A stretch of 63,945 nt of DNA, filler included, from Collodictyon triciliatum (lineage: Eukaryota): NCBI GenBank assembly GCA_043381765.1. It is 3 parts of 3 records of this genome, joined end to end, with 100 filler letters (N's around TTAATTAATTAA, not from the genome) between each part and the next. Parts side by side here need not be neighbours in the genome. Positions count along the whole stretch, not along the records: positions 1 to 21,579 come from JBHJMP010001183.1; 2 more parts are not named here. One strand, written 5' to 3'. Below are positions 7,868-63,945 of this stretch, one piece after another; within the stretch, counting starts at the first letter, position 1; the number at the start of each line of letters is the position of its first letter. Under the pieces are notes generated by a model. It made no database searches. It was not told the origin of the DNA and worked only from the letters and a program-made list of their open reading frames with translations. The translations under genes and the position numbers were made by a program.

Positions 7868-10800
7868 TCAAATCATTACATTTTGATAATAGAACGAAAG
7901 CGTCTTCAATAAAGCAACAACCGTGTCTAAATCGCGTTTCGAGTTTAGGCTGATAAGCACATCTTCATCCTGTACAAGAATAATCAAGTAAGCAAAGTAT
8001 GAACGACAAGCAATACTCTGCCGCTAATAGTTAACAGAGCGCAAGATGTTTGAATATTATGATAAAATCTGGACTAATGCATCATGGTTTGCACTGCTAA
8101 AATTATAGTTATATATATCTCAGCAAAAGTGAGCTATTCTGATTCGGACTCACATATCTATCCAACAATCGCAGGCGAAGGATTGATGTAAATAAGGTAG
8201 ATTCCTGCGCAGAAGGTTGAGAAAGAAAAAAAAGAAGCAAAAGATATTTCAATAAATCGGACTTGTTTCCTTGTCTAATCCCCCAATAAAAATAACACTT
8301 TAAAAATAGAAATAGGAGAGGTCCGCATAGTTTTTTTTGATTTTTTTTTGATTCCTCTGTATGAGACCATTTCCAAATAATAAAAATGATAAATATACAT
8401 ACATTCGCCAATTCGTAAATGCTCCAAAAATTCCAATCGAATACGAGGCATCGATCGGTTGTTGTAAAAGACCAACTCTCCGGGCTGATGGACAGCGTGC
8501 CTGCCTCATTTTGATATCCATCATATGTCAAAGCCACCGCCAGCGTGAGAAGCGGTGCGTAGTTTCGTGAATCAATTAACGTTTGGATAGAATCGCACGT
8601 TATAGAATTCGCGTGTATTGAATTAGCTGTTTGGTCGGTTACAGAAGATAGTATGGACATGTACTTGCGAACAACAAGGTCGTGTAGCCTCCCTCTTAAA
8701 ATCCGGCGAGCACAGCTTTGAATCCATGATGCAGTCGAGCCTTTTGCCATCAAAAGTGAGATGGTATCGCTCGGGGCCGATGTGGATGCTCTCCTTTCTA
8801 GAATAGTAACCAATTCAGCCGTATTTCTACCAAATAGATCCACAATTATGTGAAACTGGTTGGCTTCTTTTTGAAAAGCAGAGTCTTCATCTCTTACAAG
8901 ACCATACTTTTTTGCAAAAGCCAAGAAGTGTGTAACCAATTGCTGTGAGTAAGCTGCATAGAGCTTGAGTGAACCATTACTTTCAAGAAAGTCGATTGCT
9001 AGCTGTGGTTTCCATAGTAGCTGTTCTGCATGTTGGATAATTTGCACAGCAATTAATTTAGAAAAATGGGTTTGTGCTTCTGGAGCAAATATTCCGTGGA
9101 GCTGCTCGTAGTCTGCCGCCATATTCTCAACAGCAACATGAATGGCATCTTTAATAATATCGGCTTCGTTGTCTGTTACCTTTGGAGTAGTTCTCTTGAC
9201 ATATCGAAAGTGCTTCAAAACTCGAACAAAATCTCTGTGGATTTCCTGGGTCATAGATTTTGTATAGTACGTGGTATATTTTTCTACTCCACCCAATATT
9301 ATCTTCAGAGTAAAACTTACGATTTTGCATTCATTTCTTTCATCTTCCGATGAAAAGAATTGGTCTGATAAAACAGAAAAGTCTGAATAGAGCCTAGTCA
9401 AGTTATTTAGCCAAAGGCACCGACTTGCACTCGTCAGGGCTAATTTATCTCGGGAGTTTGCATCAAAAGTTTTCATGTGATTGATAGTATGTAGCACAAA
9501 TAGCTGCACACCTGAACACAAGGAGCGAATAGAGATATCTCGAAACACCCCAGAAAGCTTATATGAAAGCATCATGTCTGTGGCAAAAACATGAACTGCT
9601 TTGATGAAGCTGACATATGACTCTGTAACAGTCCCCTCTTCTTGGGATGGCTCATTTGTATCCTTTCGAATATATCCCGAAATCAGGCGTTGAAAGGATT
9701 TGTGCAAATGAGATTGGATGTGTGGAGCTAAAGTAGTTACCCCGCCGCATAGTGTCATGTATCGCTCTTTGGTGAGGTAATCGATGATAATTTCAAGCCT
9801 TTGGATTTGCAGCAGAAGCGTTGTAACAACGGACGGAAAATTACCCCCAGAAGGGTCTAAACTTTTCCAAATAGAATCCATCCTTGATTTTAGCTCACAA
9901 AGAAAGAAACGAATTTCATTTTCAAGGGTTTGTCCTGGAATGCGAAGAATGTTCCAAAAGTAAAAGCTATCCTGCACATCAATCAGAATCAGGTTGATTA
10001 ATGCACAAAAGTCATGAATATTGTGAACCTTGCAATCATGCGACATGTAGCCAAATCGCTGCTTTGCCCCTTCTAACAAAAGCTCTTTCAGCAAGTCGCC
10101 TCCAATATTAGGATTCAGCCCTTTGGATTTAAAGAATATTCTTGTCCATAATTTGGGTTCATCAGGGCCATAAGATGATGGGAAAGATACAGCACAATGT
10201 CGTATATGATGAGCGGCTTCCTGTGATATGATATCAATCAATATACCAGATATCGAGAATTCTTGTTTTGTCATAACTGTCTCTACACTTTGAAACATGT
10301 CAACAAACTCGTAGAATACAGAACAAAGATACTTTTCCTCGACTCGGGTGTTAAGCATCATCAAATGGACCAAATGAGTAAGGAGCGATAGTGTACGAAA
10401 AAACTTTGTAATTCCATATCTCTGGGCAAAATCTTGTAAAATATATTGATTGGCTGCAGACAATTGCTTGATAATAGCCTTTTGATAGGTACTTCCATAC
10501 ATATCTTTTAGTTGAGTTTCGAATTGAATCAAATGTGAAAGAAGAATGTGATACTGCGCATTTGCTCCAACAAGCTTAAACTTGTAGAGCGGAGATTTGG
10601 TCATGTTTACAAGGCTAGCTTGATTTGTGGGCCATCCTTCATTTGCTTCCACCTCACAGAATGAGTTTATGTACTTTCTTGCGTTTGAAAAAAGGGATGC
10701 TGAATCACTCTCTTTCTGAATTTCAGGTTGAAAAATATATTGTCGAGATATGTACTTTTGTTTGATGCTTTCGTCAGACTCTTTGAAGTCAACATCGTCA

Positions 10801-13800
10801 AATATCATATATGCAATGTGTAGCTGTGGGGGTGTTGATGAAATACGTGTAGAACTGCCCTGTGTTTCCAAATAAATCCAGTGCCGATTATAGTGTAGTG
10901 GCATCACTCTGTCCAGAGCCATCAGATATTTTGCATAGCATCGACTTTTCTTGAAAATGTTTTTAGCCCATATACTTATTGATAAACTCTGAATACCTTT
11001 TTGAAGTTTGAAAAGTAGAGTCTGTTGGTATTGAGGATTAAGGTTCTTTGGATATTTTCCCGTCTTTAATTTAACATCACCATAAGTGCATTTCACCTTG
11101 GACTCGAATTGTGTGGGGATATCTTGTCCCTCGATTATCGTCAGTAGCAGATATAGATTACATTTCTCTTGGTCCAAATATTGATTTGCAAGATTTATCA
11201 AGCGACTTTTCTGAAAATCCACCCACAGCTGGTGCAAAGCTTGTGTTTGAAAAAGTTCTGGTGTGAAACCGGGAGCTACTGATAAATACCGAAATTGAGA
11301 TAGTAAAAAATTTGAGGTCTTTAATCGCAGGCTTCGTTCTCTACATTTATACTCTACTTTTGTCATTTTAGCTTCGCTGACGTAAAAGGAACATGTAAGA
11401 ATCCCTCTCAGTTCGATGTTTGTAAAAAGATGGTCAACATGGTGACTGAAAGTATTTTTATCTACAACAGGTGATGATATACACATGTACGCATTTTCGA
11501 GCGTGTCAGACCGAATTCCATGGAGAGGGAGCTCCACATTAGGTTTGGTTTTCGAAAGTGACAGGACAAAGTTGTAATGGATTGATTTAAACCTAGATTC
11601 ATTAGTCAGAGCAAGATTTATCCCTTCATTTGTGGAGAAATTCTCCAGAATTAACAGAGGGTCAGGAAATTCGATGGATATGCTGATGTATATCTGACCC
11701 CGATGAATCATGCGTCGCTTCTTTTTTTCTAATGGTAACCAACCAGCCCATGAAATCTTTACAAGGCCATCTGAATCGTGCTCCAATTTTCCATTGACGG
11801 TATCTGATTGGGACATGGATATAATTTCCCATAACCTCATTCTAGTAGTTCCTAGGAAATCATCCAGAAATCCTATATCTTCATCGTAAACTGATATGCG
11901 GAGCATTGGCTCGTTTGGGTCCACTGAATCAAGAAGTTGTGACGTTTTCACCGTTGTGTCAGGCATTGAATTCATTTTCATGTAATTTGGTAGTGCACGG
12001 ATCATTCCTTTGCTAACTTTGACATTAAACCTGGAATGGAATTTCCAGACAGGATTTAAATTTGCTGAAATAGTTGCGGATCTCTGCTTTTGTCTGTCGA
12101 GTTGTACAATGCAATAAGGGTCACTTAGTCCTGAGATGTCTTTTGCTTGTAGATCGCGCGCCTTTAAAAAAAAAAAAAAGAAAGAAAGAAAGATAAAGGG
12201 CACAAGATTTTCACTAGGGTTTCTTGATAATAAATATTCATATTATGAATGAGCTATAAAAATAAGATTGTTTGATTGTATGTCATTTCTCTCCCTCTAT
12301 TTTTTTAATCTTGAAATATTCTCAGTTGAACGTTAAATTCGAGAAAATTATCTGATAAACCTCATGCACATTGACGCGCAGAACAGCCTCCAAGTTTTCT
12401 GAATTGTAGTCGAGCATTTTTACACCTTCCCCCGGATTTATTCTTGTAAATGGAATGATAGTGGACATTTCCACAAATCTATATTTCAATGTCAACGATA
12501 TTAAAGGTGCAAACGAAGTTGGATTGAGTCCTTCAGGGATGTGCATAACTTGCATTTCACTCTCCAGCCTCTATATAAATCATGGTGGAGATTCCTGGCT
12601 TAATATATTTGTATGTATTTGTTTTGCTCTTGTGACATTTTAATGAGTACATTATTTGTAATTAGGGGATTTTAATTCAAATCAAATGAAATAATGCTGC
12701 AATAGTAATAAAGATTATATATGAGCGTACCGATATGATATCTGTAGCCTCTGGAATAGCTCCTGTCATTATTTTTGAAAGCAAAACACGGATATAAGGA
12801 ACCAAGTTGAACTGAAACATGGCTATGGGTGGAGGATGAGGGCCAAGAAACTACATTAAGGTGTTCGAATTGCATCGTGACCATTAGTTTCGCCTTTCAT
12901 TATTGAGCTCATATGTTATTTATCTAAGCATTTCAAGACTTTAAAAATTAGATTTGGATGTTTTGCTCTGGTTTTATGGGTATATTATCTATACCTCTTC
13001 AAAAAGAAAAACGCTAAAAATGGCGGATGGTTGGTCGGTTTCAAAAGAGTACTGTTCAACCCATGTGTACCCATTCTTGAAATCACATGGAAAACTCTGA
13101 ACGACAGTATGCCCATCCGTTGCACTCATGAAACAGCGTGGTCCTGACATATATGTACATTATCATCCGATGAAATAAAAAAAATCAACTAAAAATGAGT
13201 GGAAAACAGTCTAAAGGAAAGAAAATACCTATCGATAAAGAATTTTTTTTTTACTCGATCAGATACTATGTTTTTCTCGATGTGTGTTTGAATTAATACT
13301 ATCTTGGTTGATAATGTGGGATGTATCTTTACCATTTTGAATTCCTCGTATTTTTACATCTTGAATGAGGGAACGGAAAGGCCACACCAAAAAGTATAGA
13401 GAATCACTTGGTTAATGTATTTTCCTTTTAAATTAAAATGAAATCGAATAACAGAAATCACAGTATGAGAGATATAGAATATGTACTCGATTATACTACC
13501 TATGAAAGTCACAGCAGTTGATAAGCGACCCTTTACAAAAAAAAAATCATCATTTATTGCCGAGGATAAGAAACAAATGGAGGGTGTGCCAAGAACTTTA
13601 CAGACGTATATGCAAATGAAGTCTTGACGAATCATTTGATTGAAAGTGACGAATGTGATAAGAAAATGGTGAAGGAAAAGATATAAAGGGGTTCAGTAGT
13701 TTTTAAACAACGTTTTTCTTGTGATCTGTCGAAGATCATGCAAATATTTTATACTTACAAAGAGATTGGCGTAACCCAGTGAGATACCGAGCTGATCAGA

Positions 13801-13863: not shown

Positions 13864-14090
13864 CTTTACACACGCTCACCTCAAAACAAATCCCAGTAAC
13901 TATTATGTGCTATCGTCGGACTGCAACAAGCTCTTCGCCGCAGTATTGGTGCGTGCCAGAGCGGCCTACAAACTTAGAAGATGCGAAAGGCTGTCTGTAG
14001 CTAAATGCGCACTCCTTTGATAGGAGTTAAAATGAAGTTAAGTTAACCAATAATCTTTCACTCTTGTTTCCCACTATGACTTTTTTTTTT

Positions 14091-14735
14091 NNNNNNNNNN
14101 NNNNNNNNNNNNNNNNNNNNNNNNNNNNNNNNNNNNNNNNNNNNNNNNNNNNNNNNNNNNNNNNNNNNNNNNNNNNNNNNNNNNNNNNNNNNNNNNNNNN
14201 NNNNNNNNNNNNNNNNNNNNNNNNNNNNNNNNNNNNNNNNNNNNNNNNNNNNNNNNNNNNNNNNNNNNNNNNNNNNNNNNNNNNNNNNNNNNNNNNNNNN
14301 NNNNNNNNNNNNNNNNNNNNNNNNNNNNNNNNNNNNNNNNNNNNNNNNNNNNNNNNNNNNNNNNNNNNNNNNNNNNNNNNNNNNNNNNNNNNNNNNNNNN
14401 NNNNNNNNNNNNNNNNNNNNNNNNNNNNNNNNNNNNNNNNNNNNNNNNNNNNNNNNNNNNNNNNNNNNNNNNNNNNNNNNNNNNNNNNNNNNNNNNNNNN
14501 NNNNNNNNNNNNNNNNNNNNNNNNNNNNNNNNNNNNNNNNNNNNNNNNNNNNNNNNNNNNNNNNNNNNNNNNNNNNNNNNNNNNNNNNNNNNNNNNNNNN
14601 NNNNNNNNNNNNNNNNNNNNNNNNNNNNNNNNNNNNNNNNNNNNNNNNNNNNNNNNNNNNNNNNNNNNNNNNNNNNNNNNNNNNNNNNNNNNNNNNNNNN
14701 NNNNNNNNNNNNNNNNNNNNNNNNNNNNNNNNNNN
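14091..14735. other. Assembly gap (N run); others at 29585-30167 and 37592-37801
   Basis: N runs. Confidence 1.
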
Positions 14736-14777
14736 CGTCATAGTTGACTATATAAACAGTTTGGACGGCAGGATTAC

Positions 14778-18269: not shown

Positions 18270-18341
18270 TCCGTTATGGTGTAGTCGGTAGCACGTATGG
18301 CTCTCACCCATACAACCCGGGTTCGATTCCCGGTAACGGAA
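18270..18341 (+). tRNA. tRNA-Glu (anticodon CTC)
   Basis: Acceptor stem TCCGTTA/TAACGGA; anticodon arm TATGG-CTCTCAC-CCATA; T arm CCGGG-TTCGATT-CCCGG; TTTTT Pol III terminator just downstream. Confidence 0.96.
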
Positions 18342-18899
18342 CTTTTTGCTGTCTTGAGAACGCCGCATCACATTTTTATGCTTGCAGTTAGGGGTTCACG
18401 TGGCTTTAAGATGGTCATGAGTGCTCTCCCAAAGGACACGCCCGTACAGCGTCGCTATTTTCAATACCCTGTTTGTTCGCACTGACACGTATTACATTTG
18501 AAGGAAATACATATATATTTTTTGGCCATGTTTATTCTTGAGTGGGCTGAACCAGGTAGGGAAACAGCTTAAGGTCTGCTAATAAAACCTGTTAACATCT
18601 AAATAATTATTTGATTTATAATCAAGAAAATCACCATTAACTAACAAATGTACAAGAGTGGGGCGAAGCAAAAAAAACTGGGCATTAATATACATATTGT
18701 ATGTAATACTGCTAGATTGAGAATTGATGACATTACACTTATTAAGCTGCACCTCTGGCTCTCCACTACGCAGCCTTCTTTTTTTCGCGCACACTTTGAC
18801 GGCCCATCCTTTTTCACAGCACCCGGAAATTATGAGAAAGACTTGGGGAGTATTCATACCTCTTACCTCTCCCACCTACCCTTTTTTTTTTCTGCCGAT

Positions 18900-20902: not shown

Positions 20903-20943
20903 TTGACACAGGCGAGGAATGATTTATTTATCTATTATTTGTT

Positions 20944-21345
20944 TCACTTTGCGCAAGATGGTGGAGATGTTGGCTTTGGTTGATAGCCATCGTTTGCATG
21001 GACGATACTTGGTGGCCGGGTGGCGGAGAAGTAGTCGGTAATCAGGATTTGCATCCTGCGCTTTGGCCTGCAGCGTGGGTTTTGTGCCTGCATGAGAGAT
21101 ACAAGGCGAGGTTTAATGTCTTTCTCAGCCTCTTTCCACACATCTCTTCTCACAGGGTCTGAGTAGTAGAGAGCGTGCAGGTGGCGAAGGAAGCTGTTGA
21201 GGAAAAAGGTTTGTATGATGTCATCCAGCCTGTTATCAGGAATGGGTGGTTGGTTGTTGAGTCTTGCTTTGTGTGAGTATATACATGTTATCCACATAGT
21301 CCATAGCAAATGGCCTCGCGTCACTGCCCAGAAATGTTTTTGCAT
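20944..21345 (-). mobile_element. 5'-truncated non-LTR retrotransposon (L1/Tx1-like) ORF2 C-terminal fragment
   Basis: FWAVTRGHLLWTMW...YSDPVRRDVW aligns with the tail of the zf-RVT-bearing element at 62.5-63.3 kb (*AVTRGHMLWFLW...YSDRERRDV). An A-rich tract follows the stop. Confidence 0.75.
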
Positions 21346-21516
21346 AGCTATTTTTTTTCCTATCTCAGACTTTTTATTGAAACAACCAGAATGTTTAAGT
21401 GTTTAATTGAGTTAAAGATGATAAGCGATAAAATAATAATCATAATTATGCAATGAAAAATAAGTCGAGGCCGTTTTCACAACAGTGCAGCAATCGCCCA
21501 ATTAAATGGGATAACT

Positions 21517-21579
<63 letters not shown>

Positions 21580-21679
21580 NNNNNNNNNNNNNNNNNNNNN
21601 NNNNNNNNNNNNNNNNNNNNNNNTTAATTAATTAANNNNNNNNNNNNNNNNNNNNNNNNNNNNNNNNNNNNNNNNNNNN
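21580..21679. other. Artificial contig-join spacer N44-TTAATTAATTAA-N44
   Basis: Exactly 100 nt with stops in all six frames; an identical spacer is at 43244-43343. Confidence 0.95.
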
Positions 21680-21718
21680 TATTTTCTTCGATATTTGGAC
21701 CCCAGCAACACAGACAGG

Positions 21719-21814
<96 letters not shown>

Positions 21815-24377
21815 TTATAACACTGAATGTAATTTTCATACCTAAATCAATCGAATCGAATTCACACGCAAGTTGACATACAATCCCTAGAATATACGAC
21901 ATCGAAAAAGTCGACAAAGGAATGCCTGTCGACGTTTATATCGGGGGAATCGAGCATGCCAATCTCCATTTGCTATATGCAAGGTTTTTTCTATCAGATT
22001 TTTTTTCATATTCTGTTGGATGATTTCGTCATACGTAATATAAGTTTGCTTCTCTAATGCTGAATCTTTCGAGTTAATTCATTTCTTGTTCTTGTTCTTG
22101 TTCTTCTTGTTCTTGTTCTTGTTCTTTTTTTTCTTTTTTTCTTTTTTCTTGTTTCTTTTTTCTTTTTTTCTTTTTTTCTTTTTTTCTTTTTTCTTTTTTT
22201 TCTTTTTTTTCTTTTTTTTCTTTTTTTTCTTTTTTTTCTTTTTTTTCTTCATCTTCATTCTTGATATATCTCACTGCAGATTCTTTAATTATTTTTTGCA
22301 CGACATTGGATATTCACCGACAGAGGAACCATTCAAATATTTGTTGACACAGGTGAACAGTATATGGACTCGTAGATGTGGATCATTCATCTCGATATCT
22401 TCTTTTCATTAGACATTTTACATCTTGCCATTTATCATCGTCACTTCTCACCAATTTATCTTCATATATTTGTTAAAATTGATCTCGTCAACCAGGGCAT
22501 GGTCAAAGGTCGCACTTTCCGACAAAAACAAACTGGGAGATACTTAAAAAACTCGGAGGTGGAGTATTTTGAAAATGAGGGTTATGGGGTCGAAAGAGAA
22601 TCTGGAGACAAAGTGGATGTGTTTTGGGAGAAAATGTCGAAGTCCAAATATAACGGAGTTCACCCAGACGTAGGCGTGTATATATTTCATGTTCATTTAG
22701 CTTGCTACTTACATAAAACACTCATTACTTTCAGGATTGTATTGATACATACGGGGCCGATGTGACTAGATTGTATGTTCTCTTCAAAGGTATTTTCTGA
22801 TTCATGATTCTTACATAGTTTTTACTTTCTTTTTCCCTCCTCCCCTCCCCTCCCTTCTCCCCCTTTTCTTTTTTTTTTTTTTCTCTTTCCCCCCCCCCCC
22901 CCCCCCTTCCCTATTTTTTCTTTTTCGTATATGATAGAGAAATATTATAACTTCTTCGTTAGCTCCGCCAACCAACGACCTTGAATGGGATAGTCGAGCC
23001 ATACAGGGACAATCCAGATGGATAAAGAGACTAGATTCGCTTATTCGTGATTATACAAGAAGCACTCCAGGAGATTCCGTAGCCCGAAAGTATTTCTCTA
23101 TATATTTATTTCCTATGAATTTAAAATTTTATATTGTCTTTATTATCATTACTAGCGGTCTGATGCATTTATTTTTTTTTATTTGTCATTTTCATTACTA
23201 TCACTACCCTAACCCGGCATTCTTTTATTTACGAAGGAATTTAATTGTATTCCCCCCTGTAATAATCCAAATAGGACTTTCACTGACTTTGATAGTCTGC
23301 CCGAAGAGGAAAGAACGTTGGCTATCCAAATGCACCGAACAATAATTAAAGTGACTGATGAGCTCTCAAATAACTTCAGCTTTAACACAGCGGTATTACA
23401 CATGATTTACTAAATTGTATTTGTATAAAGTTTGCACACTATCTCTTAGAGACGATTATATGTTTTGAATTAGCACCTCATTCTTTTTATTTACTTCTCT
23501 GTCCTAATTTCCTTAATCATATTCTGCTTTCTTGTTCCACAGTCAACCACATATGCCTTATCAAAACAGATTTTTTTTTGGAAGATTATTTTCATAGAAC
23601 TTTTCTTTGCATACTACGTAATATATGAATTTCTAAAATAGATATCCAGTTTGATGAAGTTTAGCAATGATGTAACAGAGTTCAAGCAAAAATCATCACC
23701 AGCATACGCTGACTCTATTAAAACGTTGATTATTCTACTGGCACCTATGTCTCCGCATTTTTCTTCTGAAATGTGGCAGATTATACACTCCAAGTCTACA
23801 CCAAATGGAGTATCAGGTAAGCTAAAATAAGATGTTTTCATTCTCTTCATCCACTTCCACTTCCACCTCCACCTTACATATTTACACTGCATCGTCACCT
23901 GCAGAACTGTTTTCTTGAACGCTAAAACCCAACAAGATACACCATGAACCAAGTAAAGGGGAAGAAACATTAACTAATCCATCATGCGATGCAGATGTCC
24001 ATGACCAGCCGTGGCCTGTTGCTGACGCTCACATCGCGTCGGTCGCCGATAAGGTGACTGTCGTTGTTCAAGTGTCTGGCAAGAAGAGTGCGGTTCTCGA
24101 GATGTCTGCCAGAGACTTGGAGGATTCCGAAACACTCATCCGAACTGCCGAGAAGGTAACGCACACGAATACATTTGGGAAAAGATAAAGAATGTGTTGT
24201 CTGCAATCCCATATCATCGCAATGTACCGAAAAGTATTCTGGCGCCGGCTGGACTGAAAGAAAATCTCCTCGAATATATCACAGGCCGCGGAAAGGCAGA
24301 TAAAAGGCCATCCCATCAAGAAGGTCGTCACCGCAAACGGTGGTCGTCTCATCAACTTCGTCGTTCAAAAGCAATAA
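21680..24377 (+). CDS. LARS2: Mitochondrial/bacterial-type leucyl-tRNA synthetase, C-terminal half
   Basis: YFLRYLDP|...[23 protein letters not shown]...[13 protein letters not shown]...[11 protein letters not shown] (KMSKS at ~22630)...[15 protein letters not shown]...VVVQVSGK...LINFVVQKQ*. The N-terminal half is missing at the join. Confidence 0.93.
21720..21814. repeat. (TAA)n intronic microsatellite
   Basis: Direct; similar arrays at 38684-38757 and 55929-56026. Confidence 0.95.
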
Positions 24378-24585: not shown

Positions 24586-27039
24586 ATGATGCTAGCTCGG
24601 TGTATGTGGAGGTCGAATCGTACGATAGTAACCCGGCATCTGCAGACAGCAAAGCGGACTCTTTTCGCCCAGGGAAATGGTCTGCCTGGCCTCCCCCGTT
24701 GATTTACAACCATCCCTTCACTGCTTCGACCATACAGAAGTGAAGCGAATCTTTGACGACCTGTCTTTACCTTTGTCTAGCTTTCCTCTTTTTCTTTCTT
24801 GTCATCATTTTTTTTTTATTTATATTTACTACACACCATTGATCGCATGCTCTTGCAGAACACAATGAGACCGAATCCGCGGAGCAGGGAGACTCCGCCG
24901 CAAAGTCCTTCGACTCTGTTGAAATGATGGACATCAATATCCTCACAGCGCAACCCGCAAAGTTTACTGCAGAGGTTGACGGGGCCGATTTGCCAGCCTC
25001 GAAAAGCATCTTTGAAACACATCAACATCCACCACTGAATCAAAAACGCATCGCTAGACTTCTCACAAACTCCCCACAATACACAGTGGATTACAACGCC
25101 ATCATTCGCTATTACGACCACCTTAATATGTAAGTCCCTCCTCTTTATAAAGTCTGGTTTGATTGTGTTCGATACATTAATATCTGCTTTTCTCAATATA
25201 TATTATTTTGAACACGAATTAAACTATTTGTTTGAAGGATTCGCTACGCCAATGAGATATTTGAAGATATGGTTGACGATGGACACCAACCAAATCGACT
25301 AACATACAAGTTTATGGTTCTTTCAAATATCAAACATAACAAATATCTCGAGGTTATGCATTATTATAAGCAATCTGTGAAGACACTTCAGTCGCTCGAC
25401 ATTATCTCTCACAATGCAGTCATGACTGCTTGTTGTGAAACCTTAACATTCCGAGATGCGTATCCGAAAAAAACAAAAAACAAAAAACAAAAAACAAAAA
25501 ACAAAAAACAAAAAACAAAAAACAAAAAACAAAAAACAAAAAACAAAAAACAAAAAACAAAAAACAAACAAAGAAACAAAAAACAAAAAACAAACAAAGA
25601 AACAAAAAATTGTATAACATGATTACTTTTCTTCTTTTCATTTTTAATTTCTTGATAAATTAAATGGTTCGATACTTTAACTCTCCTCCAATCGAAAAAG
25701 GCTCTCAATATACGGTGATATGAACAAACTAGAGCTCAAGCCTAATTCAAGGTCTTACGCTATTCTTCTTCGGGCATGCTTTCATGGGCAACGTCCTGAT
25801 ATTGCTGTCAAGCTGGTTGAGAAGATGAAAGCTGAAGGCATAGAACAAAACTCTTTCACGTTAGCGCCGTTGCTTCAAACTTTGTCGTCCTCGAGCCTTA
25901 CTATGGATGATGCTCTTGCAATATTCCATGCGCATTCGGAAAAACTAGTCTCATTCCCATCGGCTGTAATCTCAATTATGGAGGGCTTGGTTGCATCCGG
26001 CAGGACCGCAGATCTCCTGCGTTTCCGAGAGAAATATAAACCCCCTTCCAACACCTACTTCTGCATATTCAAGTTGTACAACGGAGACAAACCGATGAAA
26101 ATCATGGAATTGTGGAACGATTATTTGACACATGCCAAAATCCAAAGACCTTCTATCCAAAACTTACGTGCGACTCTGAATGCTGCGATTTGTGGATTGG
26201 AATTAAACACATGTCCTTTTAACCTTGAAAATTCGCTTCAAATATTGGTTCTCTTCATTTATTTGTACCAGCCACTAATTTTAATTGCATCATAATTTAC
26301 CTTATTTTCACTGTATTAATTGTTTAACGTCATATACTAGCACATAGTACATTTATATTTTGAGAACTGCCTGTTAATTCCGTTTGTTCGGCAGGAATCG
26401 GTCTTTGGGCTCTACACTATAAACAAAGAGATCGATTTACTTGACAACAAAAACATAGCAAATATCCTCACAGCCACTACATCGAAGGGTAAACATCAAT
26501 TACGTCTTGTGTTTATCCTTCTTAAAGTAGTTACCCAATTTATGACAATCACTAAAGCTTCGCAATGCAGTGTCTTTGCGACTTATTTTTTTTTCCTTAA
26601 CCGACTTTGGAACATGTAAGTGTCAAATCATGACCAGAATATTCATTTTCGTGCAAAGGTAACGCAGAGCAAGCCAGAAGAGCGTGGAAGGCAGTCTTGC
26701 TGACTGCAAGCAAAATAAACCCTGGAGTCCTGACAAAGCTGCTAAACCATGTAAAAATTCTTGGGAGCGAAGACCTGGTCTTGGAGATAGTTGCATATAG
26801 AGACTCACTCAATGCGCATACGGCCGGTGATAACAAACCAACAAAGTCGGCACGCGATGTAAGAGTATTTTAGATTTAAAAGACAAATGAGCCATCAGAA
26901 TTAACTACCCTTTCTCTATCGCCAGTTGCGAGTAAATGAGGAAGTTATCTTATTGTGCATCAATCTCATTTTACGCCCCCCATAAAAATTTATCTAGAAG
27001 AAAAAAAAGTACAGGCCGCCCCAGAGCACCCAGCCTTAG
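24586..27039 (+). CDS. Pentatricopeptide-repeat protein with a putative mitochondrial presequence
   Basis: N-terminus MMLARCMWRSNRTIVTRHLQTAKRTLF is Arg-rich with no acidic residues. PPR motifs: DYNAIIRYY, MVDDGHQPNRLTYKFMV, DIISHNAVMTAC, LKPNSRSYAILLRAC...MKAEGIEQNSFT. Stop at 26873, or 27039 if a last intron is spliced. Confidence 0.82.
25466..25608. repeat. (AAAAAAC)n intronic array; related array at 24395-24540
   Basis: Direct. Confidence 0.9.
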
Positions 27040-29551: not shown

Positions 29552-30220
29552 CTAAAAGAAACAAACGTGGAAAAAATATTAATTNNNNNNNNNNNNNNNN
29601 NNNNNNNNNNNNNNNNNNNNNNNNNNNNNNNNNNNNNNNNNNNNNNNNNNNNNNNNNNNNNNNNNNNNNNNNNNNNNNNNNNNNNNNNNNNNNNNNNNNN
29701 NNNNNNNNNNNNNNNNNNNNNNNNNNNNNNNNNNNNNNNNNNNNNNNNNNNNNNNNNNNNNNNNNNNNNNNNNNNNNNNNNNNNNNNNNNNNNNNNNNNN
29801 NNNNNNNNNNNNNNNNNNNNNNNNNNNNNNNNNNNNNNNNNNNNNNNNNNNNNNNNNNNNNNNNNNNNNNNNNNNNNNNNNNNNNNNNNNNNNNNNNNNN
29901 NNNNNNNNNNNNNNNNNNNNNNNNNNNNNNNNNNNNNNNNNNNNNNNNNNNNNNNNNNNNNNNNNNNNNNNNNNNNNNNNNNNNNNNNNNNNNNNNNNNN
30001 NNNNNNNNNNNNNNNNNNNNNNNNNNNNNNNNNNNNNNNNNNNNNNNNNNNNNNNNNNNNNNNNNNNNNNNNNNNNNNNNNNNNNNNNNNNNNNNNNNNN
30101 NNNNNNNNNNNNNNNNNNNNNNNNNNNNNNNNNNNNNNNNNNNNNNNNNNNNNNNNNNNNNNNNNNNTAAAGAAAAGGAAATAAAGCTGCCTCTGATCTT
30201 TGCTGTGTAAGAACACTGCG

Positions 30221-36200: not shown

Positions 36201-38681
36201 AACGGAATAAATAATAGGTCTCTGATGTTCATCCTGGCTCTGAAATCCAAGAGTATTCACTGAATAATACTGAAATTCTGCCGATGATCTTAAAGCTAGC
36301 TAACAAATCGAAAGAGCCCAAAATTCTGGTTGGATCTCGAACATCAATTAATAGCTTTGTGTATCTATTCCTAAGACTATATATTGTCTTGTTTCTTATT
36401 CTAAGCCATGAATATATTCGACTTTATTTTATCTGTAGCTTAAGGTCTTGTCCTTTTTTTGCGAACACACGGATACAAGAGAGTTTTCAAGGAGCCAGCT
36501 GTGTAGTGCAGGGATTCTGGACATTCTAATTGACATGATTCCGCATCTTCTTCCGAGCCACATTGCATATGGTAGGCTAAAATGGCATTTTAACTTAGCC
36601 CAGTAAATCATGTACCATTTGACGCTTTCGGAACTGCTTTTCCATCGCCTCGTTGAACTAACGTTGAAGTCTAAAACTCATTTCAGAACGGTTTATTAAG
36701 CTCATATCAAATTTGGGTTCTTACTCGGCGACAGTAAGGCAGCTGAAGCAATTAATCAATTTATGCCGCCCGTCAAGGGATGAGAAAAGGGTTTGTCATC
36801 ACAGTGATTTTCTGACCAATATCAAAAAATAAATCACTCGGGTTTTCTGCATACGTACATCCTTGATTAATCTTCCCTCTTTTGCCTTCTTCCATCTATG
36901 CTAATATCTTTAAAGCCACCTTGGTCTCCTTTTGTGGTCCGCATTCTTCAGAACCTATCCTCAAAATCACAATCTCGCCATTTGTTTGACCTGCATGGTC
37001 CTCAAGTGGTAACGCTTAACGCTACGATATTATCACATTTGTAACTGAGTATTAAAATATTGTAATTTTGAAATGCTATCCATCAATACGTTTTCTACTC
37101 TGACCAATCGTCTTACATGACGCACTTTGTTTTTCTAGGGAATCCAGCTACCTGTGATGGAGGCATTTCCAGGCTCAAATGGATTTACTTTTGCTAGCTT
37201 TGTGAAAATTGACTCATTTAAAACAAAGAATATGTGCCGCCCGACTCTATTTAGGTAGAATAAAATATTATGTCTAGTATGCATAACGAGTTGACATGGC
37301 ATTCTTCAGTTCTCTTACATACTATGATGCACTATCCAACAGTTTCATGTCAAACATCTCTGATGGATTTGAGGCGTATTTTAAAGGAACCAAATTATGT
37401 TTTGAAGTGGTGGACTCGAAAAAAAATACGAAATCATCATACACGTTCAATCACGAGTTTGTAGCGCGTGACTTGCAGCTTTTATGTGTTCAACATGAGA
37501 CTTACATGGTAAACTCTGATTACTATTACTATCACTATTACTATCACTATCACTATCACTATCACTATCACTATCACTATCACTATCACTANNNNNNNNN
37601 NNNNNNNNNNNNNNNNNNNNNNNNNNNNNNNNNNNNNNNNNNNNNNNNNNNNNNNNNNNNNNNNNNNNNNNNNNNNNNNNNNNNNNNNNNNNNNNNNNNN
37701 NNNNNNNNNNNNNNNNNNNNNNNNNNNNNNNNNNNNNNNNNNNNNNNNNNNNNNNNNNNNNNNNNNNNNNNNNNNNNNNNNNNNNNNNNNNNNNNNNNNN
37801 NTTTTTTTTTAAAATTCACATTCACATACTAGACCGAGGAAATCAACACGATAAGGGAGGCACTCCTTCGTGAAAGTATTAAATTGAGAGGCGAATCAGA
37901 CTTGAAAACAAGAGAGCTTCGAAAACTTCAGACTCAGATGGAGACTGGTCAGTTGGATGCACAGCGCGATTATAAAGAAAAAAGTGAATCTCGTGAACTC
38001 CAGAGAAAATTTGTACAGCAAATCCAACTCCTGACTGATGAGAACGAAGAACTGAAAAGCTTCAAAGCTAAAACGATGAACGAGCTAGAGACATTGCGCG
38101 GTATCGAACGAAGGTACACCTAAATTTAAAGTACAATTATTTCGATTATCATCACAAAACAAATATGCCAGGTTTCTATGTGTGCTGAGTATTATTCATG
38201 TATTTTGAAAGAAAATCTCATTCACGCTCTTAAATGCATAATCTAGATATTCACAGATGAGAAAAATTTGGGAGCAGGAGATAACAGCGTTAACCAATGA
38301 GCGGGATGAAACAAAAAAGGCACACACAAAAATAATAAGAGATAAATATCATCAGCACTCCCATATGTATATTTGTTAAAACAAGCCTCCATCTATAGCT
38401 GGCCGAAGAGTCACAAAGGATACTCTCTGAACTACCACTGTCACGCTCAACTTTAACAGATCCCCTGGCTTCTTCGAGATTACGCGAGTCGATAATACAG
38501 GTTTTTCTCCTTTTAATCAAAAGCTCGTATCACAAGTAACACAAAAAGAGTTTATTAGTAACCGATTTATTGCTACACTAGGACAAACAAGAACTTATAC
38601 AAATGGTGCATAAGCAAAAAGAAGAATTAGATATGCTTCGGTCTCAGTCAGGTATACTTCTGTCCTTCCTTTAAATTATGC

Positions 38682-43227: not shown

Positions 43228-43436
43228 GGGGTGGGGGGGGGGGNNNNNNNNNNNNNNNNNNNNNNNNNNNNNNNNNNNNNNNNNNNNTTAATTAATTAAN
43301 NNNNNNNNNNNNNNNNNNNNNNNNNNNNNNNNNNNNNNNNNNNCTCGAGTTATTGGTGCCAAGTTAATGGGATCGGTTGCACAACTTATTGACAAACAGG
43401 TTCTGACCTCTAAAAGAAGAATATATGTAAAAAAAG

Positions 43437-46400: not shown

Positions 46401-48502
46401 TAGATGATCTTTTGGAAGTATGTTTTTCAATCGGTTTCCATGTAAAATATGCAACAAAAACTCTTAAAATAAGTCGAATTAATTTACAATATAAACAATA
46501 ACAATTAAAGATAAATGTAAGAGAAGTATGATTTTGTGGTGTCCGGGCAATTTATCCGTTTTTTTTTTCCCCCACCATATAGGCCTTAAAACTAGATAAA
46601 GATAGGGATGTTCGGGAGGCTGCAGTAAAGGCACATGAAAAGGTACTGCTGTAATTGCGGAACGAATTATCTGAATTAGGACGATAAACTATAAATAACC
46701 AAAAGAACTACCTCTGTATGTTAAGTTTTTTTTTCCTGTTCATTCGATTGAAGGGAAGGATGAATCCATATAAAGTTGAGTATACGATGTAATAAGTTGT
46801 GTGATTGGGAAATTTCAATACAGATGCCGGATATTGTCAGAGAGGCTCAAACCCCAAATGCAGACAGTTTGGACAAAAAGAAAGAGGAGGAGGAGAAGCT
46901 GATTGGTGGGATGGTTTGTGCGATTATAGATTGAAATCTAAATGAAACAAAGCAAAAAAATAAAAATGAAAAAAATGAAAAAAAAGAACAGAAGAGAACA
47001 GAAAATAAAAAAGAAGCTTTAACAAATTCATGCAATGTCTAACCTTTCGAATGAAACATATGGTGACTTTGATTTATTTGACAGGAGCCCGACTTTGATG
47101 ACCCACGACGCAGGGACATGGAGTTGGAGAAAAATCGGAGTGAATTCCGAAGAAAGTTTGTAGAGAACGACAATCAAAACCAGCAAGGGAAGACAAAGGT
47201 CGGAGGTCTATCCTCATCAACACCTCGACCACCTCCGAAACTGGGACCGGTGCCACCAGGTCGCACCTCCAACCTGTCCGGGACAGGTCTGTGTAATATG
47301 GAACAAAAATGAATAATAACCGTGAAACCATTTTTACTGCATGCAGCCTATCATGAATCAAACGCTATTTTGAATTTATATGTTTGGATAGCATCATGGC
47401 TATTTGAATATCAATATTCTCTTCGTTTCATATTTTATGTTTATCCCACAAATAAGAGCAACCAACTATGAACAAAAGTGATTGTATGCAAAGTTTTATC
47501 TTCTGATGAAGCCATCCTTTCAGACCAACAGGCAGAGCCGAGACTGCCACCGACCGGCCTTAAACTCCCAACAGCAAATAGCATGAAGAAAGCCCCATTA
47601 TCTGCCCAAGGACAGCGAACAAGCAACGCAGTAGCATCGCTGTCTAATGCGCCCATATCCAACTCACCTTCGCTGTCGTCTTTGTCGTCGAATTCCTCGG
47701 TCACCTCATACTCTGGATACTCCAGCCAGGTAAAGGAAAAACGCCCCCACCAGTACGTTACATATGTCATTACCCGCCATGTGACGCTTCGCAAGAATAA
47801 AAGTGTCCGATGCACCCCTTCAACCACCCACCCCAGAGCGGACTGAACGGACTTCCAGGCAAGCTTCTGAAGCCAATCAACAAGGAATCCGGTAAGCAAG
47901 CGAGGCACACACATCAACATACGACACAAACCCACCGACTACCACCCTCTGAGCCCCACCCACCCACCGAACACAACCTGCCCTCCATGACTCATCGCAC
48001 CCAAGCAGCCACAGCCACAGCCACAGCCACAGCCACAGGAGCGCCGTCCGCACCATCGTCGTTCTCCATCCCCCTCGGCAGGCTCCCGCCCCGCGAGATG
48101 GACTTTGCCACGCCAAAAGGTATCCCCGCCCTCCTTCCGCCCGCCGACACGCGCCACCGCCCGACTGACCCTAACTGACCAGCCCCACCCCGCCACACAG
48201 TGAAGCCGCCGGCCAGCAGGGCAGAGCCCGCCCCGAAGCCGTCGCCCGCATACGCGGGGACCCTGCCGTCCGTGCCCAGCGCCTCCACGCGGCCGTCGCC
48301 CCGCCCGACGCCGCCCTCCCAGGGACGCCGCCCCTCCTCAGACGGCCCTCGCCCCGATGCCCAGTACATGCCCAGGCCCCGCATGGACCGCACGCCAGGC
48401 GCAGCCCCCGCAGCCTCCTCGACTCCCGCCATCGGCCCGGTGGGCGTCGCTGCGTACGAAGGCCCGTCCAGCCTCTCTGGGGGGCGGAGTCGTCGCTTCT
48501 GA
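42975..48502 (+). CDS. PPP4R4: Protein phosphatase 4 regulatory subunit 4-like HEAT-repeat protein with a Pro/Ser-rich tail
   Basis: LCQDTDYEVRSAVCQQL, ELLKDEEISVKNAAF, RKNAAFNFP|AV, DVRKTIAHGFHE|IV, NWRATKKLL, FSRRFFRDVFY, DPVSNVRLKFC, DKDRDVREA. Start exon at 42975 is separated from the rest by a join, and the 3' end is approximate. Confidence 0.82.
43244..43343. other. Artificial contig-join spacer N44-TTAATTAATTAA-N44
   Basis: Same as 21580-21679. Confidence 0.95.
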
Positions 48503-49673
48503 GCGTGCGCCCCTTGCTCTCGCCCTTGCCCTTGCCTGTTGTGTCTCTGCGCAGCTTGTCTAATTTATTCCAGGCTGTGGCTGGGTGGCTGGGATTCCTG
48601 CGCGGCGGCCCACTGCTGCCGGCTGCGTCCCTTCCAATCCCAGTTCTCAGCCTTTGCTCGCCTCTCCCTTCCTCTCTTGCCTTCCCCATGGTCTATTCTG
48701 TTGTTAGTGCTGTATTTCTCTGGTGAAAAGGTAATAACGAAAGAAGCGCACTTGCCCTTTCCTTATTGTTAGCCCACTCCCAACCCCTTCATCGCCACCC
48801 TGATTAAAACGCTTTTCAGTCGTGGAAGTTGTCATCGGGGTATTGCTGGGACTATTTTACTGCTGGCTTCGAAACGCCCGTCTGGCGGCATAGGAAGTGG
48901 GGTTGGCTCAGTGTGGTGCTGTGATTCAGTGGTTTATGTCAGTGCGTCGAAGCAACCAAAACAAACAGACAAACAAATCAAGTCAGTCAAATCAGAGGTG
49001 ATGGAGAAAGTCCGAGGGCGTTAGGGGAAGCATGTGGCATGTGCGGGTGTTTGTGTGGGTTGAATTGGGTAGGAATCGAAGGTGAAACAGAGTGAGGGAC
49101 GGCAGGGCGAGACAGTGCGAGATGGGGAGCGAGCTCATTAGTACCAGCGAAGCACACAGAAGCCACACACACAGGCAGGCAGAGTAAGGAATTTCCTCTG
49201 AAATCAACAGGAGGGCAACAAGAAAATGAAAATGAAGAGAATGGGAGGAAAGAGTAGGCAGAGTCATAATTGCCTTGTGGTGACAAGACAAAACAACGAG
49301 CAGAGAGCGGCAGAAAGGAAAAGAAACGAAAAGAGAAGAGAAAGATTGTGAATTGGCAGCAAGCATGCCACAAAGCGTCGCGAGGGGAGAGACCCTGAGA
49401 ATGCCATGAATCAAATCGGATACTCTCACATTCGACTAGCTCTGTTGCAGAAAAAAAAAGAGATAAAGAAATAGGAATATCTCTCCATTTCAGCTTTGAA
49501 AGAAGATAACGATATCAAAAATAAAAAAAATTCTGCTTAAATGCTCCATTCGAAAAGGAAAAGAAGAAAAGAAACTCAGAGAAGAAAAGCGAGAGACATT
49601 GCGCAGGACTAACGCTAGTCTCTCTGGCCACTTGTCTTTGAGACGTGTCACCCGGGCCGATTCAATATCGGGT

Positions 49674-53373: not shown

Positions 53374-53457
53374 GCCGAGATGGCCGAGTGGTTAAGGCGG
53401 CGGACTTAAGATCCCCTGGTGTCTATCACCGCGTGGGTTCGAACCCCACTTTCGGCA
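53374..53457 (+). tRNA. tRNA-Leu (anticodon TAA), long variable arm
   Basis: Acceptor GCCGAGA/TTTCGGC; D arm GCCGAGTGGTTAAGGC; loop CT-TAA-GA; T arm GTGGG-TTCGAAC-CCCAC. Confidence 0.93.
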
Positions 53458-62375: not shown

Positions 62376-63295
62376 AAACTTTGTTTTTATAGATTCAAAC
62401 TAAGTCTTATCGGAATTAGTGGGCTATGGAGGTTGTCTTCTACTCGATTCAAAGTGCGAACTCGTTAAGCCATACTAGAGGTGAAAGACTTGTGCAGAGC
62501 AGAGAGCAGACGCGAGTAGAAGACGTTACTATGGAGAGGCTAGCACTGGAAAGAAATCAGTGATAGCGAGTTGGTCAGGTGGGCGACCCAACTGGTTGAT
62601 TGGTTGCGTGGGTAGCAGGGGGTTGATATGTTGTAGGAGATATCGCACGACACATTCCCACATCTCTTCGCTCGCGGTCAGAGTAGTGGGGACTGCGGGC
62701 GTGTTTCAGCAGGATACTCAGGAGGCTGTATTGCACGAGGCTTTCCAGTCTGGGTACATTGATTTCTCGTTCGGGTGAATCATTGGAGCGAGAGAATGCA
62801 CGCACACTCCATAAGAACCACAACATATGTCCCCTTGTGACTGCTCAGAGTATTCTAGAGTCGTGGGTCATTTGGTATTGTGGGCCAAACAGGATGTCAG
62901 ACGCGCTGAGTTGGTTGGGAGCATAATCAAGCTCAGAGAGCATCTTGTGGGAAGATTCTGTCACTCTTTGAGCCAGAGACCACTTCAAAAATGTGTGTTC
63001 GATAGAGCCATCTCCACTATGGCACATGGTGCATTCTGGAGAGGTCGTTGCTGCATGGACTACACACGCGCACCTACCCACAGCTCTCTGTTGGAGATAT
63101 TGAGCAGTAGGGCGCGGTGTTTCGGGAGTAACTGAGGTATAGGGACTTGCTTCCAGCTTTTGAATATCAGCGGGTCTATAATGCCTATAGTTTCGGCCCA
63201 ACGACTCATCTTCTCCGGTTTGTAGGGATTCGGGCTGATGATTTTATATCGAAACAGCTTGGAGTACGCCATGGCCATCGAGAATTGAGGAGAGT
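62376..63295 (-). mobile_element. 5'-truncated, frameshifted L1/Tx1-like non-LTR retrotransposon (zf-RVT plus C-terminal tail and 3'UTR)
   Basis: CTMCHSGDGSIEHTF (CxxC...EH zinc-binding region of LINE ORF2), an internal TGA where the other copy has W, and frameshifts. A possible 8-bp TSD CAAATGTC at 62368-62375 and 63296-63303 is weak. Confidence 0.8.
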
Positions 63296-63784
63296 CAAAT
63301 GTCTTTTCTCGATTTACTATTTTAATAACAGAAGGAGTAGGTATGTTCCTCTGCAGTAATCAGCATAAACGACGATGATTATATGCCCACAAAGGAAATT
63401 ATGGCTGTGACAAAATGATTGGTGTTTATGCTCGATAATGCTCATTTTAACACGGAGGAAAATGTTTCACGTTTTTATCTAAAGAAAAATTAGTTTTAGT
63501 TCATGTTTTATTTCATGGAATCGAATGCAGACTTTTTCTTATCCATTATTTTTTTTTCCTTATTATTTCTCTAGCTCTGTCTCTCTCTCTCGATGTGATC
63601 ACCACACTTATTCACATTGTAATGATAAAATAGATTGACCTTTGGTAAAATCCTTCACGCAAACAAAGAAACCTTGAAGATTTTTATTTTCCAATAACGG
63701 AGTGTGACGCATTTCATTTATCAAATACTTTCTCCATCTAAAATTCCGGACGTGAGCCTTGTGCCAGCAGTCCAACCGGAGATC

Positions 63785-63859
<75 letters not shown>

Positions 63860-63945
63860 TCTAAAAGTCTTAGCTGTTGAGCCCGTCTCAACAATCTTTC
63901 ATTCAACCATCAGGCAAGTAGTTCCAAAGTAGGTGGGGATGTGTG

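Follow-up and report, generated by a model that had tools for sequence, protein, structure and literature searches.

A conserved C-terminal TD-type PIP box, a putative PCNA-docking tail, in the ORF2 protein of an L1-like retrotransposon with fragments in the Collodictyon triciliatum genome

Human LINE-1 (long interspersed nuclear element 1, L1) encodes the ORF2 protein (ORF, open reading frame), ORF2p, which Taylor et al. reportedly dealt with together with PCNA in 2013. The internal PCNA-interacting protein (PIP) box of human L1 is not known to have a TD pair. PCNA is described as a positive host factor of human LINE-1 that is recruited during or after target-primed reverse transcription (PMC10830420, PMC7617806; all papers are cited here from excerpts). 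The vertebrate L1 PIP box sits between the endonuclease (EN) and the reverse transcriptase (RT) (PMC5381506), and the human box (404-419 / 407-415) is reported to be a helix packed against the palm and fingers (PMC10830420). According to a proposal made in 2025, the site bound by PCNA is instead an unusual motif of the wrist domain, called 'PUB' (PMC7617806). R2 is given as having no PIP box in the excerpt of PMC10830420. In this study we analysed a window of 63,945 nucleotides (the whole stretch of DNA, parts of three Collodictyon triciliatum records of assembly GCA_043381765.1 joined with filler) and found that the ORF2 protein of an L1-like LINE family, two fragments of which lie in the window, has, by its predicted sequence, a conserved C-terminal PIP box of the TD type.

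The PIP box of the pogo transposase, reportedly described by Warbrick et al. in 1998, lies near the C-terminus of that enzyme. The DNA transposases of pogo, Tigger and Lemi1 carry canonical boxes, the functional relevance of which is described as unclear (PMC5371812). The pogo box reads QKKITDYF (PMC8191301, PMC4615156) and, on a p21 scaffold, was reported to bind human PCNA at 8.82 nM (PMC8191301). The affinity of p21 rises with Ile at position 4 (M147I) and also with Phe at position 8 (Y151F) (PMC8191301); in the engineered peptide p21-08 the core is QTSITDFF (PMC4615156). The TD pair gives high affinity and is described as rare outside CRL4-Cdt2 substrates (PMC3973308); the PIP-degron consensus is Q/N-x-x-psi-T-D-theta-theta-x-x-x-R/K (PMC3973308, PMC6881253). 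Positive flanks are reported to increase PCNA affinity and negative flanks to be disfavoured, and the PIP motifs of confirmed binders are for the most part found in disordered segments, frequently at the ends of the protein (PMC6881253).

The window holds two dead, 5'-truncated fragments from two subfamilies of an L1-like non-LTR (long terminal repeat) retrotransposon, called copy 1 and copy 2 here. Both are without everything upstream of the C-terminal domain (CTD). The features of copy 1 are as follows.

21001..21343, minus strand: LINE copy 1, decayed and 5'-truncated, a 3' piece of an L1-like ORF2 with the last ~115 codons of the coding region (tblastn with homologues)
21052..21096, minus strand: variable basic linker preceding the box, MQAQNPRCRPKRRM
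21028..21051, minus strand: PIP box of copy 1, QILITDYF (six-frame scan and codon reading)
21016..21027, minus strand: SATR after the box, with R at +4, the degron-defining position in copy 1
20983..20985, minus strand: codon 140, TAT (Tyr) in copy 1 and TAG (stop) in 6/6 other covering contigs
20944..20946, minus strand: TGA terminating the read-through frame of copy 1
20915..20982, minus strand: 3' end of copy 1, short, rich in A and with strings resembling AATAAA, 3' boundary approximate

The minus strand at 21016-21060 encodes RRMQILITDYFSATR, just as an earlier reading of this DNA (hereafter the original prediction) had claimed, and this peptide fits the published PIP-degron consensus. 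It lies inside P0001, the stop-to-stop frame 20944..21402 (minus strand) of 152 codons. Within it, QILITDYFSATR covers 21051..21016 and RRM (21060..21052) stands just before; the five residues preceding the box have a net charge of +3. No Pfam family matched the copy 1 ORF of the window. In tblastn, copy 1 was matched by P0008 (86.7% identity), P0003, P0005, P0009 and P0011, all of them relatives described below, and these match only 21001-21343. When contigs of freshwater-metagenome runs were placed on the window at 80% likeness, the summed contig depth, which is not equivalent to copy number, was 100-450 at ~20950-21330, 2-10 below 20948 and 0 above 21350; of the raw reads of run X9, none could be placed. 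This profile indicates that copy 1 is a 5'-truncated insertion, ~345-400 bp long, of a multi-copy repeat with single-copy flanks. The depth drops between 20950 and 20925, where the loose ends at 20948 (X2, X3) are A/T-rich. Inspection of the junctions by eye for target-site duplications gave just one imperfect A-rich match. Because copy 1 is a decayed, 5'-truncated fragment, it is itself unable to make ORF2p.

Copy 2 was first detected by tblastn with P0001, at 41.5% identity over 65 residues. It has the following features.

62532..63359, minus strand: LINE copy 2, a decayed, 5'-truncated member of a second, diverged subfamily (pieces matched in tblastn by P0005, P0011, P0009 and P0014)
62845..63243, minus strand: zinc-knuckle region of copy 2, CTMCHSGDGSIEHTFLKW (frame reading; Pfam)
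62550..62573, minus strand: PIP box of copy 2, QLAITDFF (six-frame scan)

The tblastn pieces share 82.7-88.9% identity with P0014. Since copy 2 reads in three frame pieces, two frameshifts are implied. In its zinc knuckle, Trp substitutes for the last Cys, and the TGA at 62845-62847, where relatives have Trp, ends the zinc-knuckle piece; the Pfam match to zf-RVT is weak (E 0.07). The box is followed by PVLASP and then by two stops, TAG at 62529-62531 and TAA at 62526-62528. Directly upstream of copy 2 there is a poly-A run, which may belong to another retroelement as its tail.

A six-frame scan of the window was compared with 300 simulated windows. The pattern Qxx[ILMV]TD[FY][FY] occurred twice, against a simulated mean of 0.023, and the full degron pattern once, against none in the 300 simulated windows. 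The plain pattern Qxx[ILMV]xx[FY][FY] occurred 9 times where 13.0 were expected. Since the plain pattern is frequent by chance, it is the TD-type match alone that carries information. The two matches of this type in the window lie in the tails of the two diverged LINE fragments, and their position at homologous sites excludes chance.

Relatives of the two copies were collected from sequence collections. Six matches came from an HMMER search of 1.84 billion representatives, and their cluster mates added 3 relatives; among the 12 proteins listed by a profile search of a 5.8-billion collection, 8 were new. The resulting 17 relatives, numbered P0002 and upward here, come from metagenome-derived contigs of 0.5-1.8 kb and are all unnamed or 'hypothetical'. 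Word-indexed searches for longer relatives with P0001 and P0009 as queries gave no match, which is weak evidence. A pattern search of metagenome contigs, with a 5-sequence alignment and then with P0003, gave pattern matches and no relative confirmed by tblastn. The zf-RVT family (PF13966) was above its gathering score of 27.5 bits in P0009 (34.1), P0005 (36.4) and P0008 (31.2). The cysteine motif CTLCHNGIDSIEHTFINC fits CX2CX8HX4C, the form given for non-mammalian L1 (PMC5381506). In the VIA wide fold search with an AlphaFold2 (AF2) model of P0011, the CTD of human L1 ORF2p (9hdo_A) ranked first of 48,161 chains (Z 9.0; root-mean-square deviation (rmsd) 3.8), with 154 residues aligned and model positions 147-318 placed on ORF2p 1094-1266; this match is only suggestive as evidence of an L1-like CTD fold. 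A sequence profile search of the PDB gave only a chance CBS match (E 1.4), and a scan of the window for RT motifs found no RT piece adjoining either tail. The hallmarks of a LINE, i.e., a multi-copy element, 5'-truncated insertions and an A-rich 3' end, were all observed. Our assignment of the tails to an L1-like ORF2 is based on zf-RVT, the CX2CX8HX4C motif, the multi-copy, 5'-truncated, A-rich character of the element and the ORF2p fold rank. The zf-RVT domain in the relatives thus supports the LINE assignment made in the original prediction.

Conservation of the box was examined in 19 sequences, that is, the 2 window copies and the 17 relatives, of which 6 end before the site and 13 reach it. 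A strict box was in frame at the same alignment column in 9 of these 13 tails, as follows.

Subfamily A: QILITDYF (window copy 1), QFLITNYF (P0008), QFLITDYF (P0004)
Subfamily B: QSVITNFF (P0003)
Subfamily C: QTAITDFF (P0005, P0012), QTAITDYF (P0010), QTVITDFF (P0011)
Subfamily D: QLAITDFF (window copy 2)

The box has a one-residue gap in P0002 and a frameshift in P0006, and P0009 loses the frame ~10 residues ahead of it. The box is kept across subfamilies that share only 29-42% identity. In an alignment of 8 protein tails, with 29-71% identity to P0001, 7 columns are invariant and 4 of these are box positions 1, 4, 5 and 8; D or N occupies position 6 and F or Y position 7, with free variation at positions 2-3. 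Retention of positions 1, 4, 5, 7 and 8 with positions 2-3 free is the pattern expected if PCNA pockets read the box. Of the TD pair, T5 is present in 9/9 in-frame boxes and D6 in 7/9, with N in the other 2/9. The mean top-residue fraction in the same alignment was 0.77 in the box, 0.69 in the folded domain, 0.56 after the box and 0.54 in the linker.

The codons also point to the protein level. Copies 1 and 2 differ synonymously at I4 (ATT/ATC), T5 (ACC/ACT), D6 (GAC/GAT) and F8 (TTC/TTT), and this spelling of the same residues by different codons indicates that selection was on the protein. Among the variants listed, those at 0.5-0.97 of contig depth comprise 9 synonymous changes and 3 replacements, one of which is at the free box position 2. 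At that position the variant 21048 T>A (I to F) accounts for 0.93 of the pooled contig depth, and the family contigs mostly read QFLITDYF where copy 1 has QILITDYF. Substitutions private to copy 1, among the variants listed, number 12, namely 10 replacements, 1 synonymous change and 1 stop loss. The box is kept in the ORFs of P0005, P0010 and P0011, which are uninterrupted from zf-RVT to the shared stop.

The stop loss bears on where the protein ends. The variant 20983 A>C accounts for 139.2 of 139.2 depth in X2 (5 contigs) and 6.12 of 6.12 in X3 (1 contig). Since position 20983 is C in 6/6 covering contigs, making TAG, the family ORF2 stops 14 residues past the box, and P0004 ends at the position of this codon 140 stop. 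The distance from box to stop is 6 residues in copy 2, 7 in P0003 and 9 in P0005, P0010, P0011 and P0012. Copy 1 reads past the family stop, and the 12 codons that it gains in this way, up to the next stop, are unselected; 27 residues follow its box, i.e., 23 codons stand beyond R until the TGA at 20944-20946. Placement of the motif at the extreme C-terminus, as originally predicted, is therefore right for the family, with a stop 6-14 residues past the box, and does not hold to the letter for copy 1. The relatives' ORFs place the motif in frame near the C-terminus of an L1-like ORF2, in agreement with that prediction.

In the AF2 model of P0011, a helical domain spans residues 172-319 (block-mean predicted local distance difference test (pLDDT) 56-86) and the last confident helix is 294-316. 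The box (329-336) lies in the tail 320-345, where pLDDT is below 50 and a short helix (326-336) covers the box. This tail is past the part aligned to the human CTD, and the box follows the L1-type C-terminal domain after a variable linker. The box segment is thus predicted to be unstructured, in a flexible tail. The net charge of the flanks ranges from 0 to +4 across tails, and no tail has a negative flank. A basic run, RPKRRM or RPNHRM, stands right before the box in the copy-1 subfamily (window copy 1, P0008, P0004; 21052-21066, minus strand, in the window), and could double as a nuclear localisation signal. The other subfamilies are without a basic run ahead of the box.

These observations invite comparison with the known systems. 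The family resembles human LINE-1 ORF2p in having an L1-type ORF2 with a PIP-consensus sequence and a CCHC motif in the CTD, and this protein gave the best, only suggestive, fold match. It differs from human and vertebrate L1 in that its box is C-terminal, of the TD type and in a predicted flexible tail past the part aligned to ORF2p 1094-1266. The original prediction had noted that the location is unlike that of the internal L1 box, and this proved correct, since the box is C-terminal here and between EN and RT in human and vertebrate L1 (PMC10830420, PMC5381506). The pogo transposase is likewise an enzyme of a transposable element with a TD-type box, and its core ITDYF is identical to that of QFLITDYF in the copy-1 subfamily; however, pogo is a DDE DNA transposon and not a retrotransposon. 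There is no homology to pogo beyond the 8-residue motif, and the likeness is therefore convergent. The degrons of p21, Cdt1 and Set8 share Q-x-x-psi-T-D-theta-theta and K/R at +4 with copy 1, P0011 and P0012, and the KRR-Q flank of p21 (PMC4615156) resembles the PKRRM before the box in the copy-1 subfamily. These three are cellular regulators and do not come from mobile elements. The LINE family has K/R at +4 in only 4/9 tails. FEN1, Pol delta p66/POLD3 and archaeal polymerases have a short motif at the C-terminal edge in a disordered tail (PMC6881253), as does the LINE family by prediction. FEN1-type boxes differ in being mostly without TD and in the weak, micromolar binding reported for native peptides (Table 1, PMC8191301).

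We consider it probable that the tail is a functional PCNA-docking element. The LINE cores ITDYF and ITDFF are identical to those of pogo and p21-08, and the canonical features of a PIP box were found in its sequence (9/13 tails), its disordered placement (pLDDT below 50) and its flanks, which are not negative. The ORF2 protein of active forms would end in a short flexible tail with Q-x-x-I-T-[D/N]-[F/Y]-F, 6-14 residues before the stop. This tail would enter the hydrophobic pocket and the Q-pocket of host PCNA, as the tails of p21, pogo transposase and FEN1 do. The particle of ORF2p and RNA would thereby be tethered to DNA-loaded clamps, at replication forks or repair gaps. Such tethering may favour target choice, completion of target-primed reverse transcription, which is the role assigned to PCNA in human L1, or both. 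The R at +4 in the copy-1 subfamily may expose its proteins to CRL4-Cdt2, as a side possibility and not as a conserved function.

Several points weigh against a functional docking tail. The human precedent is a warning, since its canonical-looking internal box packs on the RT and the PCNA site has been proposed elsewhere. The most distant relative, P0015, has QNFPSQYF in place of a canonical box. The 9 in-frame tails represent about 4 lineages and are not independent. The longest relative has 392 amino acids and no full-length element was recovered; neither RT nor endonuclease was seen in any of the 17 relatives, so an extra internal PCNA site may exist. The link to the human CTD is weakened as well, for the fold searches used the AF2 model of P0011 with a mean pLDDT of 49.8, the next row of the VIA search (Z 8.3) is an unrelated helical protein and helical models often reach such Z, and Foldseek against the PDB with this model gave only ferritin-like helical bundles (E > 0.2). 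As for P0015, which stems from a Logan assembly, its box position 4 is Pro and its end, NTPFFYYSK, is longer and rich in aromatic residues; either this copy has decayed or its lineage has a clamp motif of a non-canonical kind.

PIP-like motifs overlap with those for Rev1 or Mlh1 binding, and the TD of the pogo box is not known to have a degron role. Both facts are relevant to the other explanations of the conserved box. The box may not be a PCNA ligand at all and may instead pack back on ORF2p or its RNA, or bind pockets of the Rev1 or Mlh1 type. In human ORF2p the canonical-looking PIP box (404-419) touches the palm and fingers (PMC10830420) and PCNA was proposed to bind the different 'PUB' site (PMC7617806); the short helix that AF2 draws over our box would also agree with packing. 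However, the box is not part of the confident fold but of a tail with pLDDT below 50, past the CTD-aligned part and after a variable linker, its kept positions 1, 4, 5, 7 and 8 with 2-3 free are exactly the PCNA-pocket pattern, and confirmed PIP motifs are mostly disordered and often terminal (PMC6881253), so that we regard such a role as rather improbable. It is hardly credible that the motif is a chance string or artefact in decayed, non-coding repeat DNA. The window copies are indeed dead and plain PIP strings are frequent (9 observed, 13.0 expected), but the TD-type box was found 2 times against 0.023 expected, and at homologous sites, it is retained in the uninterrupted ORFs of P0005, P0010 and P0011 from zf-RVT to the shared stop, and the two copies differ by synonymous codons.

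The reading put forward originally was that the tail is a PIP degron, which docks on chromatin PCNA and leads to destruction there, so that transposition would be coupled to replication and limit itself. In detail, the basic residue at +4 would recruit CRL4-Cdt2, and ORF2p would be ubiquitylated in S phase or after damage and destroyed, limiting transposition; such self-limitation could apply to some subfamilies at most. As the general explanation of the box, this appears unlikely. The full consensus is present in window copy 1, P0011 and P0012 (3/9 tails), and P0008 misses it solely through N at position 6. No variant of at least 10% falls on the R codon of copy 1 (21016-21018) among the variants listed, the frequency of K/R at +4 (4/9) exceeds a background roughly estimated at ~1 residue in 9, and the reported rarity of TD outside CRL4-Cdt2 substrates (PMC3973308) would also speak for a degron. 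However, the residue at +4 in the 9 tails is R four times, H twice, and L, P and A once each (R, R, L, P, H, H, R, R in the 8-tail alignment, and A in copy 2), and with an entropy of 1.75 bits this column is among the least conserved. TD by itself is stated not to cause degradation in the excerpt of PMC6881253, and its own destruction brings the element no obvious gain. In the copy-1 subfamily +4 is R, R and L, so K/R is found at the subfamily level only. Since +4 is K/R in only 4/9 tails and the entropy is high, a degron is not a conserved property of the family, although it is possible for some subfamilies. The original claim that all degron features are present is accordingly correct for copy 1, which has TD at positions 5-6 and R at +4, and the TD part extends to the family (T5 in 9/9, D6 in 7/9), whereas the basic residue does not; as a family trait the full set of features was not sustained.

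Returning to the docking tail, its parts are known, but their combination, an L1-like ORF2 with a TD-type box that is predicted to be exposed at the C-terminus, is new. In the openly searchable literature, with subscription papers and supplements outside this scope, we found no description of a C-terminal TD-type PIP box in L1-like ORF2; within the open literature there was likewise no paper linking a PIP degron to a transposable element. PCNA is among the very few host factors that are known to act positively and directly on LINE-1, and its mode of engagement is disputed. If the docking tail is real, the family would be a natural experiment in which clamp docking was selected in LINEs whatever the interface, and the tail, present or removed, would offer a peptide-level handle on the part of PCNA in target-primed reverse transcription. 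A retrotransposon would also join the convergence on the sliding clamp that is known for DNA transposons and bacterial insertion sequences. If some subfamilies do carry a degron, theirs would be the first mobile-element enzyme wired into CRL4-Cdt2. As a doubtful conjecture, the L1-like lineage may have replaced or supplemented the buried, non-canonical PCNA interface known from vertebrate L1 with an exposed, near-optimal TD box on its C-terminal tail, converging on pogo. CRL4-Cdt2 recognises precisely this combination of TD with K/R at +4. The erratic residue at +4 (R, H, L, P, A) could then record a tug-of-war, in which docking with high affinity would make ORF2p liable to destruction in S phase, and loss of the basic residue would let lineages evade it.

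The rest of the window contains genes and repeats. Copy 1 is ~500 bp, in window coordinates, from class-I aminoacyl-tRNA ligase exons on the opposite strand, and so stands beside or inside that gene. These exons are at 21880-24188 (plus strand), with Anticodon_1 above its cut-off at 23645-23830; the exon 21880-22023 presumably resembles leucyl-tRNA synthetase. A pentatricopeptide-repeat exon follows at 25684-26295 (plus strand), with PPR_2 and PPR_3 above cut-off. On the minus strand, 8112-12242 is a single open frame of 1377 codons with C2 domains (Pfam), the nearest Atlas clusters of which are BAIAP3 / unc-13-like C2+MUN proteins; we regard it as a host gene with an unusually long exon. The Atlas assigns this gene to Eukaryota, most often Arthropoda, which is too little to fix a phylum. 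Genes for tRNA-Glu (CTC; 18270-18342, plus strand) and tRNA-Leu (TAA; 53374-53457, plus strand) were above the Rfam gathering score and were also found by ARAGORN, and the Rfam scan of the window gave nothing besides these two. Gaps of N are located at ~14090-14740, 21580-21680, 29580-30170, 37590-37800 and 43300-43350. Homopolymer and microsatellite runs (poly-A/T, (TAT)n, (GAA)n, (CT)n) are seen, for example, at 63780-63860 (minus strand) and 21510-21580 (plus strand), and there are many others. In a window of ~39% GC, the block 47400-48730 is GC-rich and has long overlapping frames on both strands with Gly/Arg/Ala-rich translations; a promoter region of the CpG-island type, or else another repeat, may account for it.

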